From contig OZ024740.1 in NCBI GenBank assembly GCA_964016885.1, positions 297,848,001 to 297,912,000 of the forward strand: 64,000 nucleotides of DNA. Reading direction: 5' to 3'. Of the stretch, positions 2,971-63,790 are shown in pieces. The stretch comes from Eledone cirrhosa (Eukaryota). Below the pieces are notes generated by a model, which had not been told where the DNA came from, ran no database searches, and saw nothing but the letters and a program-made list of their open reading frames with translations. The position numbers and the translations under genes were made by a program. Numbering within the stretch: the first letter of the stretch is position 1; each line of letters opens with the position of its first letter.

Positions 2971-3315
2971 TTTGGATTCCTCTTAAGCCCAATTTCTGCC
3001 TCAACTCGTCCAAGCTCTGCCTTTCTCTCACACTTACATTGCACATCCAACACACACACACACATGTATATATATATATATATATAGGAAAATGTTTAAC
3101 CCCGACGGCAGAGCTCAAGCTGTTTCGACGGCTATTTCTGGGCTCCAGAGATAGCTGTCGAAACGGCTTGAGCTCTGCCGTTGGGGTTAAACATTTTCCT
3201 ATATATATATATACATGTTTGTGTGTGTGTGTGTGTTGGATGTGCAATGTAAGTGTGAGAGAAAGGCAGAGCTTGGACGAGTTGAGGCAGAAATTGGGCT
3301 TAAGAGGAATCCAAA
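2971..3315. repeat. ~170-bp-arm near-perfect palindrome: RTE fragment + microsatellite + HHR 3' half, mirrored
   Basis: tttggattcctcttaagccc... pairs with ...gggcttaagaggaatccaaa; 3-nt loop gct at 3142-3144; ORFs 2817+ and 2834- mirror each other. Confidence 0.95.
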
Positions 3316-3595
3316 GTGGTGTTCAGGAGAGAAGACTGCTTTGGTATGGACATGTGATGCAGATGGACAATGATTGTTGAGGGAAGAAGTGCAAGGAAAT
3401 GCCAGTGGAAGGAAGCCGCAGTAGAGGTAGATTAAGAAAGACTTGGGCAGAGGTTGTGAGAGCTGACCTTAAATCACTGAGACTCACAGAAGAGATGACA
3501 AAAGAACTCAGCAAGTGGAGAAATTCCATGCTGAGAAGGGCCTGTCCAACCCATGCAAGCGTAAAAAAATGGATGTAAAAATGATGATGATGATA
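3235..3595 (+). mobile_element. RTE-clade LINE 3' fragment
   Basis: WMCNVSVRERQSLDELRQKLGLRGI..RRLLWYGHVMQM..GRLRKTW then (atg)n tail. Confidence 0.85.
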
Positions 3596-3959
3596 TATAG
3601 GAGATGAATAGGAGTGGGTATATCAATCATTCTTTAACAAATGCAAGAAACCTCAATGCATTAATTGCTTATGAAAAAAGTCCTCTGTGTTGTCTTTTAA
3701 TCTGCTAGAAGTAATAATTCAATCCTCCTCAGATCACACTCAACTGTCTTAAAATAGGAAGGACATATTTGATTATATAGACCTATATACATATGTCTAA
3801 ATGGAAGATGGATTGATAAGTGCTAAAACACCTTTGATCATAGGTTTTCTCACCTGGGGTTGACCTAGGGCTATACAGTAACAACAACCAAAATTAGGAG
3901 AATTTAGTATTTATCCCTATTCTCTATTCTAATAAACTTTATTTGAAGATATAGTAACC

Positions 3960-4226
3960 TTAACCTGTTAACTGCCACATATATTTTACACAGCTACAGT
4001 TGCTGTGCCGGTTTTTTGTTTTCAGTAAAATGACTACATTTATTAACAACACATATCTGAATGATTGACAATCATCACATCAATAAACTAGTAACCCCAT
4101 CTAGCTTTGAAGTTATGAACTGTTGGAAAAGAGTTCAAACATGTTAGGACGAGTTATCTCTTCCATGGCACTGGAATGCATACATGTTAGAATGAGTTAT
4201 CTCATCTACAGCACTGAAGAGGTTAA
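3960..4226. mobile_element. piggyBac-like MITE
   Basis: ttaacctgttaactgc ... gcactgaagaggttaa: TTAA-bounded imperfect TIRs. Confidence 0.55.
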
Positions 4227-4972
4227 TGCATATAGCTATAATAATAGTTGAATAAATCTAGTAAAGTACCTCTGGAGATAGAAAATTGTGAAACGTCTGC
4301 AGGAAATCAAACTACACATATATTCTCTATCCATGTGTTTTTCTGTCCCCAGGGGTGCTTATGCCCAACTTGTGAGAGATGCCATATTTTGATTCCCCAT
4401 AGGCATCTGTATCCACTTTTTTTCCTTCACCAAGGGTACTTTAACTATTATTATAGTGATCTGCATTGTGGGAAATATATTTTCTAATTTCAAATTTCCT
4501 AGTGCTTTGTAAATTAACCAAAAATGTTAACCTTTTTATTTCATTAACCAAAACACTGCTAAATCTCTCTCCTATTACAGCAAGCCATCTTTAAGAAAAG
4601 GAAGATTATTTTTAGATGGCTATGTTTCTATTGGAAAGGAAAAAGATAGAGCTGATTGTCAGATCAGATCATTGAATTTTCCATTGTTGATTACTATCAT
4701 TTGGTTACAACTGACAGAAAGCAATGTAAAATAAGTATTTTGCTCAAGTACATTGCTCAAGAACACAAACATGGCATCCAGTCCAGGAATGAAACCCACG
4801 ACCTTACGATCCCAAGTCCAACACCCTAATCACTAGACTACATACCTTCACTAATGAAATATACTCTCTTTCAATTAATGAAGAATTTGAAAAGATTTAT
4901 CAAAATTTTTAATAATTTCATTTTTAAGATGATATTTATACCATGATTCAGAAAAGGTTCTTATATAAAATA

Positions 4973-5558
4973 CTAGCAGTGGTACCTGGCGTTGCATGGG
5001 ATAAGGTATTTTGGAACGCGGGCCGCCAACAGACCTAATCGTGGAAAAACTGCATGCCTGGACAATATGTAAAGAAAATAAACCGAATACTCTGATGGCT
5101 GGATAATCTTTAAGATTTTCCTCGATGAAGCAGGAAAAATGCAGGTTTTAACCTAATTTTTTGTATGTGTCTTGAAATTTCGGGAAAATTGGCTAGACGT
5201 AAAGCCTCAAAAAAGCCCTAAAAAGCTGAATAAATGAATTTTTTTACCTAATGCTAGGCCATAAAAAAGTTGAATTTTCTTTGCTCATGGTCTGAAGAAG
5301 AGACTGACTAATACATAGTTATAATGTCAAGGAGATCGGTCTGACGTAACACCTAAAAAAAACCTTAAAAAGCTGAAAAAACGCAGTTTTTCACCTAATG
5401 CGGGTCCTAGGGGATCAAAAAGTTGAATTTTATGTGCATAACACTCCTGAAACATAAGTAATACACATGTAAAGTTTGAAGAAAATCGATTGGGTACTTC
5501 TTGAGTTTTAGGGATTCAAACTCACACACACACACACGCACAGTTTTATATATATAGA
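4973..5558 (-). mobile_element. Non-autonomous Helitron
   Basis: Minus strand begins A|TCTATATATATAAAA and ends with a GC-rich subterminal motif then CTAG|T; internal gtaaagtttgaagaaaatcg shared with the 43.6-44.2 kb copy. Confidence 0.75.
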
Positions 5559-5590
5559 TATTGGAAAATTTTAATTTTAATAGGAATCAT

Positions 5591-5830
5591 TTAACCCTTT
5601 CATGGCCATATTTGTAATGATATACTCTCTATTCCAATTAAGTAATGAAGAATTTTGAGTGAGTTTCTAAAATTATTAATTATTTTATTACTAAGTTAAT
5701 AACTTAACATATGGTTCTTATATAAAATGATGTTGGAAGATATTGATTTAAATAAGAACCTTTTAAAAGGGTTGGTTTTGTTTTATAGAACCAGGACTGA
5801 TTTTAGCCAGGTTTGTATCATGAGGGTTAA
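5591..5830. mobile_element. TTAA-bounded MITE-like repeat (relatives near 20105-20395 and 33046)
   Basis: ttaaccctttcatg ... catgagggttaa. Confidence 0.5.
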
Positions 5831-6007
5831 AATAGGTGGCTTGTTTCATAGAATCAATGGTTAGTTTGGGATGGGTTGATATCAAAAGAGATAATCATAG
5901 GTCTCTTCAATCAGAGTTGATTCCGTGCTAAGCAAGAACAAAAACCTTTTTTTTTCATCATATTTCAATGTCATGTGATGTAATAACACCTATTTCCCTA
6001 TTTCCAG

Positions 6008-6152
6008 GTTGCCATGCCCTCTGCTACCGTACAATGGAGGAAACTTTGCAAAGCTGTCTATCACAGCCAATTTCATTTTCAATGAATCCCAATGATTTAA
6101 TCCGAACAGAGATCAACAATCTGTCACGTACTCAGATGAAGGAACTTTGCCA
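6008..6152 (+). CDS. Exon A of uncharacterised Cys-rich single-pass membrane protein (signal-peptide exon upstream not securely found)
   Basis: Acceptor tttccag|GT; reads [48 protein letters not shown](Q); donor CA|gtttgt (weak); phase 1 in, phase 2 out, matching exon B. Confidence 0.75.
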
Positions 6153-61711: not shown

Positions 61712-61970
61712 TATCAAAGATTAGCGAAAAGGAGAATATCTATGCAGAACTAATGAGAAATCAGCAGATTCTCCACCCTGACTATATCTTCAAATTTATG
61801 CCTGTGATTATTGGGACACTGGGATATGTTAGTAACTGCCTCAATACAAATCTTGAGAAGCTGGGCTTCACAGAACCAGAAAGAACACAACTAGTTAGGA
61901 AATTACAAGTACAGTCCAGTAATGGAACAGTAAAAATATGTAAAACATTCCAAAAATTCTGCATCTAATA
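61712..61970 (+). mobile_element. R4/Dong-like RLE non-LTR 3' fragment
   Basis: KISEKENIYAELMRN..FMPVIIGTLGYV..LEKLG..KLQ..GTVKICKTF. Confidence 0.7.
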
Positions 61971-62560
61971 ACTGCATATACACTTGTACAGATACAAAAC
62001 ATATGCACATGCACACATACAACTCAAAACATACACATCCACACATACAATAACATCCATACATATACACACATGCATGCATGCAGACATATCTACCTAT
62101 TTGATGTTGTGTAAATTCCAACGAGAGTCTTGTATCTATATTAGAAACCGACTCTCTCTCTATTGGCAAAAAATTGTGAAATTATAAAACCAGAATACAC
62201 ATACATACAGTATTTGTTTACTTATTATATATTTAATGACCCAGGTGGAGGTGTGAACTATTTTAATAACCTTATGTCAGTATTTAATGTATGTGAACCT
62301 CATAAGAAATTACACTGATTCATTATACTACCATCTGGTTCGTGTATCCTGCATGAAAAGACTAACATTATTTTATTGCTGCTAATAATTTTATAATGTG
62401 AAAATAATTGAAATATTTACCTATGTCTGATATGTGTATGTATAGTATATTTGGTAATATACTGTATGTTTAATTAGAAACATTTTGAAGATCTTGAGTT
62501 ATTATTTTAAAGTAGTGACTATGTCACTTACTTCTTTTTTCAGCAAAGGAAGGGAGAGAA

Positions 62561-62600
62561 GCTGACAGATCTGTTTCACACTGTTGGTGTTCCTCAGAGC
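62561..62600 (-). ncRNA. Minimal type I HHR, copy 1
   Basis: Minus: gct-CUGAGGA-acac caaca gtgt-GAAA-cagatctg-UC-agc. Confidence 0.92.
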
Positions 62601-62878
62601 AACGTACTCGCTGACCTCTGTCGAAAATTATAGAGGCTGGATTCTTATAGAATTCCAGTAATAATCAGGAACTGATTATACAGAGCGATTGCCGGTCCAG
62701 CAAAAATAAAAAAATTAGGATTGGTGCTCTGAAATAGCGATGTATACATGAATGTATGCATAGTATATTTGGTAATATACTGTATGTTTAATTAAAAACA
62801 TTTTGAAGACCTTGCTCTATTATTTTAAAGTAGTGACTATGTCACTTACTTCTTTTTTCAGCAAAGGAAGGGGGAGAA

Positions 62879-62918
62879 GCTGACAGATCTGTTTCACACT
62901 GTTGGTGTTCCTCAGAGC
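62879..62918 (-). ncRNA. Minimal type I HHR, copy 2
   Basis: Identical to copy 1. Confidence 0.92.
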
Positions 62919-63011
62919 AACGTACTCGCCGACCTCTGCCGAAAATTATAGCGGCTGGATTCTTATAGCATTCCAGTACAGAATTCCAGTAATATCTGTC
63001 TCTGTATGTAT

Positions 63012-63430
63012 GTACATGAGCGGAAAGTTGCTTTTGAAGCATCTCGAATCGCATATGAGAAAGTAAAAATGGATGTGAGGAAAGGCATTACTGTTGCATT
63101 TCCTGACAGCGAAGGTCCTTCTATGGCGCTGTCATGCAGCAACTGTGCGAGACTCTGCCACAGCAAAGCTGGACTCGAAAGTCATCTTCGCAGTCATAAA
63201 GTGAGACCAATGGTTGACTACCAAGCTGCTGTCGAAGATGCTGCTCATCATACCTGTCAAGCAAGTGGAAGAGATTGTAGATCAGCAGGAGGGCTCAAAC
63301 GACATGCGAAAGTACATGAACTTCAACCACAGTCGGCTATTGCCAGTGAATGTTTTGGTTGCCAACTCTGTGCGAGACATTTTAGATCATTGGCTGGGCT
63401 AAAAAGCATTCGATCGCAGCACCGTTAATT
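63012..63430 (+). mobile_element. 3' fragment of the same zinc-finger LINE family as 57062-58755
   Basis: [37 protein letters not shown]; homologous in inverse orientation to 57062-57480. Confidence 0.9.
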
Positions 63431-63739
63431 GTTTATATATAAGGGTATATGTATGTGTGTATGGGCATGTAAGTGTGTGTGTGTGTATGTATATGTATGT
63501 GTGTGTGTATGTATATATATGTGCGTGTATGCATATATGTATGTATATATATATGTATATATATGAATATATCTGTATATATATGTATATATGTATGTAT
63601 ATATATATATATATATATATATATATATATATATATATATATATATTCGGTTTGCTTTTATCCTTCTATGTTGTTTACTTGTCCCCCTCGCTTTACGCGA
63701 ATTACTGGTCCCAATAACTTTTTTTAGTTATTGCTCGCA

Positions 63740-63790
63740 CCAACCTGAGGTATCTGATTTTTAATGCGATGAAATACCAATGATGGTTGG
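63740..63790 (+). ncRNA. Decayed HHR-like motif
   Basis: ccaac-CUGAGGU-atc..gat-GAAA-taccaatga-UG-gttgg; A9 and position 17 altered. Confidence 0.4.

Follow-up and report, generated by a model that had tools for sequence, protein, structure and literature searches.

The stretch of DNA analysed here over its full length, hereafter the window, comprises 64,000 nucleotides of the Eledone cirrhosa genome (C1:297848001-297912000 of a 3.0-Gb assembly); it is AT-rich, abounds in TA and CA microsatellites and contains remnants of long interspersed nuclear elements (LINEs). The window carries type I hammerhead ribozyme motifs and, near its end, a hammerhead of permuted order. We consider it likely that the hammerheads are the 3′ ends of many Penelope-like element (PLE) families together with non-coding passengers in TA microsatellites, and that positions 63708-63809 hold a permuted hammerhead with a predicted cut after 63754. 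The features on which the argument turns, some of them lacking an open reading frame (ORF), are these:

63708..63809, plus strand: non-circularly permuted hammerhead (SGC order) whose chain is also open between A9 and stem II
63647..63869, plus strand: ORF-less repeat unit of ~526 bp, 5′-truncated, carrying the permuted hammerhead, with microsatellites on both sides
38127..41245, plus strand: young Hydra-type PLE, 5′-truncated copy
41042..41182, plus strand: type I hammerhead of the Hydra-type element, with a 104-nt stem II and a palindromic loop III
36066..36132, minus strand: intact type I hammerhead of a very abundant family (47/66 relatives intact)
37697..37766, minus strand: intact type I hammerhead, inverted partner of 41445; the pair flanks the Hydra-type insertion
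60867..61133: two intact type I hammerheads forming an inverted pair between (TA)n tracts, cores 60929- and 61070+
62400..62975 (ends approximate), minus strand: retrozyme-like tandem dimer of a 318-bp unit, cores 62915 and 62597
12993..13050, plus strand: type I hammerhead with a U3-A8 core, from a retrozyme-like family related to 62915

Type I motifs were detected using a descriptor that admitted C3-G8 or U3-A8 cores (the latter variant taken from PMC4209133), a long stem II and a short or long stem III. In its strict form, the descriptor passed eight sites in the window (core C3 at 13005+, 36124-, 37754-, 41051+, 60929-, 61070+, 62597- and 62915-), all with the C-G-S order, stems I and II and a palindromic loop III. 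Twenty local dinucleotide shuffles yielded a mean of 0.8 sites (maximum 4); an earlier descriptor version gave 8 against 0.57. Extending the search to 99 stretches of 10 kb, taken at round coordinates on large contigs (990 kb), returned 145 matches against 8.3 in shuffles, and the excess over shuffles was 10- to 17-fold. Per 10 kb, the window holds 1.25 sites and the other 99 stretches 1.46, and 64-kb bootstraps from the sample gave a median of 7.5 sites (5-95% range 2-22). Because random stretches give a similar density, the window is average rather than a hotspot, and a local-hotspot reading was discarded with the window at the genome median. The extraordinary density originally claimed thus stands against chance and against published genomes, and falls against the genome's own background.

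Extrapolation at a score of at least 9 places ~400,000 type I hammerheads in the genome (bootstrap 270,000-560,000), or 330,000 when two tandem arrays are removed; the higher estimate leaves out half motifs and families missed by the descriptor, and possibly includes a few false U3-A8 matches (12/113 matches are of this type in the context set, which consists of the sample matches with the two arrays excluded). The estimated load of ~135 per Mb compares with published totals, obtained using other descriptors, of 126,247 for the axolotl and, from PMC4209133, ~9,000 for Xenopus tropicalis and 4,000 for the coelacanth. The density of hammerheads is real and genome-wide, and is the quantitative extreme of a known phenomenon.

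Could the motifs be chance matches in AT-rich DNA rich in inverted repeats? Rfam found no hammerhead in the window at the gathering score, nor in the best 150 of the 259 matches listed at E<=10, nor among the 39 rows for 60800-63900. An AT-rich 27-bp minisatellite from outside the sample (L260, 1779-2729) mimicked the descriptor and contributed ~27 false U3-A8 matches, and six of the 24 originally listed sites (35588+, 47249-, 25214-, 41905-, 46693+ and 49300-) had no relative that passes the descriptor. Set against these points are the 10- to 17-fold excess, the family structure of the motifs, their compensatory changes and their fixed position in PLE terminal repeats, and we regard a chance origin as very improbable. 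For the intact families it is excluded by the shuffle controls and by a pairing test on nine copies, described below.

The genomic surroundings of the type I motifs point to PLEs. As had been predicted, the motifs are of the PLE type I kind, come from many families and associate with (TA)n: a (TA)6 tract lies within 300 nt downstream of 87/113 matches, against 23 at random. Divergent inverted pairs, a PLE pattern described in PMC8557442, account for 28/113. The predicted general absence of ORFs nearby was also borne out: in the 4 kb upstream, remnants of a PLE ORF occur for only 9/113 matches, against 5 at random; because so few have such a remnant, most type I matches are read as short tails. 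The original proposal of a large non-autonomous population fails for several families that are the 3′ ends of autonomous PLEs and form no separate class, namely the 41051+ family and other type I families located downstream of Neptune-like ORFs. Two observations weigh against a PLE origin of the motifs: upstream ORF remnants are not enriched over random positions, and parent elements were traced for a minority of the type I families only. A location in PLE terminal repeats was seen for 41051 (14/16 loci), and no parent was traced for 36124, 37754 and 60929.

The traced parent is the Hydra-type element. The copy at 38127..41245 retains the endonuclease end of the ORF (38127-38444), followed by AT-rich tandem repeats and a microsatellite-like 3′ untranslated region (3′ UTR). 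Among scored matches to the peptide encoded by 38127-38444, 150 are near-identical, and the frames holding them reach 866 codons in some cases; the element's ORF encodes 811 aa and combines a reverse transcriptase (RT) with an endonuclease. Across 16 near-full-length loci, the 41051-type motif was present in 14, lying downstream in sense orientation in 12, upstream in sense orientation in 4 and upstream inverted in 6. The protein, as translated from locus L110, possesses DKT, a CxCX5C linker, CxxC, CxH and a C-terminal endonuclease, and lacks CCHH; a homologue search recovered 119 homologues, none of which bears a name, and Pfam returned no matches to it. On this list of motifs, the element at 38127..41245 is a putative member of the Hydra clade of PLEs as described by Craig et al. 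2021 (PMC8557442), with which it shares the C-terminal endonuclease and the DKT, linker, CxxC and CxH motifs, insertion into (TA)n and a type I hammerhead. It differs in having RWR in place of RWK, a 3′ UTR of 2-5 kb and a very large number of copies, with first-look candidates totalling 57,051, a count that includes other families. Because the hammerhead lies 1.9-5.1 kb behind the ORF, the element is longer than described (generally <3 kb). In the window, 37671-41594 forms a nested arrangement in which the Hydra-type element sits within the microsatellite spacer of another family's inverted hammerhead pair. At 38385-39582, its 3′ UTR opens with a tandem series of AT-rich repeats, each 113-139 bp long and starting with the last codons of the ORF; other copies have them as well.

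Other type I motifs are organized as tandem repeats. The dimer at 62400..62975 is ORF-less, with one intact type I hammerhead in each 318-bp unit, and retrozyme-like arrays were found at L034 (~420-bp units) and L050 (310 bp). These two arrays and a third, in L270 (7568-9528; ~490 bp), carry hammerheads with U-U at 10.1-11.1. As a whole, the type I motifs are a known kind of system. With the PLE pseudo-LTR (long terminal repeat) hammerheads of PMC4209133 they share the type I order, a palindromic 15.2-16.2 region, an extra base after A9, the U3-A8 variant, and a distribution over many families, mostly as single truncated copies with some opposite-strand pairs; they depart from these in a stem II of up to 115 nt and in a stem III of 4-5 bp in some families. 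The 62597/62915 dimer, the L034 and L050 arrays and family 1 of the permuted motif (below) resemble the animal non-LTR retrozymes (PMC7229834; bioRxiv 10.64898/2026.07.22.740005), which are likewise ORF-less and tandemly repeated, in units of ~300-500 bp that each hold a single hammerhead.

The most unusual site in the window had been predicted at 63740+ as a weak or decayed type I motif; it is instead an intact permuted hammerhead. Its parts, all on the plus strand, are:

63708-11/63806-09: Pe
63712-33: Pf hairpin
63735-39/63765-69: Pa (stem II)
63740-45/63785-90: Pb
63749-53/63774-78: stem III
63754: C17, with the predicted cut at 63754/63755
63755-61/63791-97: stem I
63771-74: GAAA
63798-804: CUGACGA

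The cleavage triplet and a strand of stem I come first, followed by GAAA and then by CUGACGA. A type I reading of this site was rejected, as GAAA precedes CUGAnGA and tandem repetition cannot convert the SGC order into that of type I. The strand preceding GAAA pairs with an upstream strand as Pa, continuing into Pb, which bridges to stem I; the strand following A9 pairs as Pe rather than with the strand before GAAA, and Pe closes the ends of the motif with hairpin Pf between. In topology, this is an SGC ribozyme whose chain has been broken between A9 and stem II. Because block C is interrupted, with the post-A9 strand in Pe, the motif is a new variant of the SGC type rather than a member as defined.

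Conservation of this architecture was evaluated in nine diverged copies. The core (C3-U4-G5-A6-N7-G8-A9, G12-A13-A14, A15.1-U16.1 and H17) is complete in the window copy and in 9/9 aligned copies, which were selected by core. Pairing extends over 94.4% of cells, against 24-50% in slid registers, and 10/34 pairs are changed on both sides (shuffles 3.2); this control is generous because the copies are related to each other and were chosen by the descriptor. Stems I and III are paired in 95% and 100% of cells. Stem II is a helix of 4-7 bp with its partner strand upstream, ending at 11.1 or one base short of it; the linker between stems I and II measures 3 nt, and the bridging Pb is 91% paired, with 3/6 pairs changed on both sides. 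The nested helices are recovered in the minimum-energy fold (z = -2.96). The structure of the permuted motif is well supported, and its catalysis is predicted.

The same six-helix layout is carried by three families that have no helix sequence in common. The full architecture matched eight times in the 990-kb sample, seven of these being family members and one a low-complexity false match, against a mean of 0.75 in 20 shuffles (maximum 3), and by extrapolation the genome holds roughly 20,000 copies of the permuted motif. Family 1 is young, with its best 40 copies 99% alike, has a 526-bp unit and forms tandem arrays of 497-529 bp units in 6/30 loci. Families 2 and 3 returned at least 521 and at least 1,015 first-look candidates, respectively, and the family 3 unit is 771 bp long. 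Pairing per helix is 81-92% in family 2 and 95-98% in family 3; Pa of family 2 is 88% paired when read one column off, a shift due to an insertion in the reference copy. Cores are intact in 30/30, 15/30 and 23/25 of the fetched loci of families 1, 2 and 3. No ORF lay within 1.5 kb upstream in the listed flanks of the three families, and a search for type-CSG motifs gave one low-complexity match, and nothing further, in the loci of the present genome that it covered. The 526- and 771-bp units of families 1 and 3 differ from the animal retrozymes in carrying a permuted hammerhead instead of type I.

With the type-SGC and type-CSG ribozymes of Eckert et al. 2023 (PMC10085705), the window motif shares the S-G-C block order, all core bases, the short linker and the helix bridging stems I and II, and type-SGC ribozymes with a 3-nt linker and a bridging helix were shown to cleave in that work. 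It reports the SGC and CSG forms from metatranscriptomes and metagenomes only, with no known organism save for one weak GCS candidate; here, the setting is an animal genome with an estimated 20,000 copies. The window motif further differs in having the 5′ strand of stem II upstream and two extra helices after A9.

Several points tell against a cutting permuted hammerhead. The main risk is that opening the chain at A9, combined with the ambiguous 10.1-11.1 pair, could abolish catalysis: the base opposite 11.1 in families 1 and 2 is either a C-U mismatch or the base after A9, although this pair is G-C in family 3 and in several Naiads (with the G upstream), a group of PLEs considered below. PMC10085705 assumes that block C is uninterruptible, and a break between A9 and stem II is not among the forms tested there. 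One family 2 copy folds no better than shuffles (z = 0.18), and the shuffle control for the full architecture overstates significance because the family copies are related. Natural hammerheads do, however, tolerate a weak or mismatched base of stem II (PMC3088659). Against the wider explanation, which takes in the type I motifs, stands the poor cleavage in vitro of minimal PLE hammerheads (PMC4209133).

An alternative is that the permuted motif, though derived from a hammerhead and conserved as a folded RNA, no longer cuts and acts as a binding or template-loading signal for a PLE protein. It fits the 3′-terminal position of the motif, a site at which RT would be expected to bind, the break adjoining the catalytic G12-A9 pairs and the ambiguous 10.1-11.1 pairing in families 1 and 2; PMC8557442 also argues that hammerheads are possibly dispensable for Naiads. 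We nonetheless find it unlikely, given that all catalytic bases, A15.1-U16.1 and a non-G at position 17 are kept in three families of unlike helices, and that some Naiads carry a textbook type-CSG motif, a form shown to cleave (PMC10085705).

The repeats share (TA)n targeting with Naiad PLEs (Craig et al. 2021, PMC8557442), and the motif was compared with published Naiad 3′ ends. According to that paper, Naiads lack canonical hammerheads; its authors flagged 18 Naiads as 'core' or 'half core' ('HHR_core', 'HHR_half_core'). The last 600 nt or more of 31/54 of its consensus sequences, named by file order, were parsed by eye, and a permuted hammerhead was recognized in 13/31 ends from six phyla; ten of these 13 carry the authors' 'HHR_core' or 'HHR_half_core' flag. 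The split-SGC layout occurs in seven, two of them from Octopus: Obim, Ovul, Esco (weak Pa), Bfor (2-bp stem I), 3_Chem, 2_Movir and Plae. In five others (Hpol, Smim, Parc, 2_Nbra and 3_Nbra) the motif is cleanly of type CSG, and in Lpol it is an SGC that is not split and whose stem II is imperfect. From these consensus sequences, the motif type at 63708-63809 is predicted to be an overlooked ribozyme of Naiads. Several of the ends that lack it have another conserved motif. Two of these other motifs resemble twister ribozymes by eye. Other conserved folded motifs were observed in Naiad-1_Movir, Naiad-4_Chem and several bivalve Naiad 3′ ends (PMC8557442 File S5). Naiads may swap ribozyme classes.

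The Naiads of the present genome are decayed: 108 RT matches were found, many with stops, and by eye the remnants resemble the published Octopus proteins. A pattern built on RT motifs gave three matches, equal to its control (3), and the three translate as Naiad-like remnants. Searching for a GIY-YIG-bearing Naiad ORF beside the motif yielded C-terminal endonucleases in 30/30 excised loci, and the long ORFs of a further 20 loci likewise had them; the window repeat differs from Naiads in being ORF-less, with no N-terminal GIY-YIG plus RT ORF in the listed 1.5 kb upstream. Several results bear unfavorably on the link to Naiads. The Naiad parses were made by eye; 18/31 Naiad 3′ ends show no permuted hammerhead, with three ostracod ends ambiguous; an intact motif lies downstream of 0/13 inspected RT remnants among the 108; and the Octopus Naiad motif pattern has no match in this genome. 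The last two results leave Naiad descent as a proposal for this genome.

The same evidence bears on the possibility that the permuted motif cuts while the repeats are an independent retrozyme lineage, moved by Hydra- or Neptune-type proteins or other LINEs, with the likeness to Naiads convergent or due to a ribozyme swap. The contrast between old Naiad remnants and a young family 1, the 0/13 flanks and the apparent use of other ribozyme types by other Naiads speak in its favor. We judge it improbable, as the six-helix layout recurs at the 3′ ends of Octopus, squid, ctenophore, cnidarian and acanthocephalan Naiads. This possibility and Naiad descent overlap in part, because other PLEs can move the young passengers of dead parents.

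Taken together, a model for these hammerheads as PLE tails and passengers emerges. Its observed basis is that the motifs belong to repeat families, adjoin (TA)n and frequently form inverted pairs, and that 41051+ lies in the terminal repeats of an element encoding RT plus endonuclease. Reverse transcription would start at the 3′ end of the element and usually stop early, so that mostly short, ORF-less ribozyme tails would be inserted. PLE hammerheads likely free the element RNA from longer transcripts, the minimal ones, in which stem III is short and palindromic, slowly and as dimers (PMC4209133). In the permuted motif, stem II would be completed by the upstream strand and the RNA ends would exit via a four-way junction after A9; because stem III is full, the motif should be able to cut as a monomer. 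Within tandem 526-nt repeats, cutting would release unit-length RNA for circularization, and a PLE protein would copy the released RNA into (TA)n. The permuted motif would be the Naiad ribozyme type, and the repeats would descend from Naiad tails.

We lean towards the broader view that permuted hammerheads (CSG, SGC and the new split-SGC) are the ribozymes of Naiads in at least six phyla, that the split form, cutting as a monomer, drives ~20,000-copy retrozymes, and that this genome bears the largest hammerhead load reported. If true, the published statement that Naiads lack hammerheads would be overturned, and so would an argument that hammerheads merely parasitize PLEs, with a self-cleaving ribozyme kept across the group. 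The non-circularly permuted hammerheads, until now without an assigned host or role, would gain an animal setting and many natural variants. The A9/10.1 position would be a place where the hammerhead chain can open, one that standard descriptors and Rfam miss. A literature search that left Lunse et al. 2017, subscription papers and bioRxiv supplements outside its scope turned up no earlier description of hammerheads in cephalopods, of permuted ones in Naiads or other animal sequence, or of an A9 junction; in their available text, PMC13725137 cites known hammerhead permutations only, and PMC10162972 and PMC13282606 do not cover the split-SGC form.

The original prediction had counted about 20 motifs, and 24 sites were listed. 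The positions given mark the ends of motifs rather than their cores. About nine are intact, and the rest are truncated, slightly altered, decayed or lack a relative that passes the descriptor. Sites that did not pass the descriptor were sorted by comparison with ~1.9 Mb of fetched DNA. Beyond the six sites with no passing relative, nine of the 24 (9302+, 41445+, 49732-, 50356-, 11080-, 26279-, 27905+, the halves 3085/3160 and the halves 11580/11640) are hammerhead-family copies that are truncated, carry one change or fall below the stem II threshold. The remaining features are:

9298..9388, plus strand: type I hammerhead with a U3-A8 core and a 62-nt stem II, core 9302
41433..41503, plus strand: type I hammerhead of the 37754 family, one loop III change
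49664..49740, minus strand: type I hammerhead, one loop III change (4/11 relatives intact)
50318..50362, minus strand: minimal type I hammerhead, weak stem I (9/53 relatives pass)
11030..11086, minus strand: type I copy truncated in stem I, abundant family (29/108 relatives intact)
3070..3200: 3′ halves in an inverted pair, U3-A8 type I family, full form in L137 and L219
27905..27950, plus strand: minimal type I family, 3′ half (8/25 relatives intact)
47168..47255, minus strand: decayed motif (U4C; 0/14 relatives pass)

The 9302+ motif has a complete core, falls below the stem II threshold and has one relative with compensatory changes. The 11080 family possesses a 4-bp stem III and U-U at 10.1-11.1, with 26279- a decayed copy; a type III reading of 11080 was dropped, its relatives being type I with a 4-bp stem III. 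In addition to the pair at 3070..3200, two 3′ halves lie at 11570-11690. The predicted 3′ halves at 3160 and 11580 proved sound, and a reading of 3085/3160 as a miniature inverted-repeat transposable element was rejected since longer copies have the 5′ core. A PLE ORF whose end has decayed precedes the motif at 50318..50362, and the motif at 47168..47255 lies ~1 kb behind a Hydra-type endonuclease remnant (48621-48229). At 35588+, the core is complete and stem II is 91 nt long, but the strand following the cleavage triplet finds a better partner in a segment within stem II than in stem I; two relatives are alike in this.

The complete hammerheads at 9302+ and 13005+ lie in sense within an apparent plus-strand gene. 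Its possible exons are near 9480-9600 and near 18962-19459, and the second of these encodes PPxY motifs and a hydrophobic stretch; the two hammerheads could cut the pre-mRNA if they are active. A Mariner transposase remnant and RTE-like LINE remnants are found at 20974-21849 (minus strand), 55095-58887 (minus strand) and 62952-63428 (plus strand).

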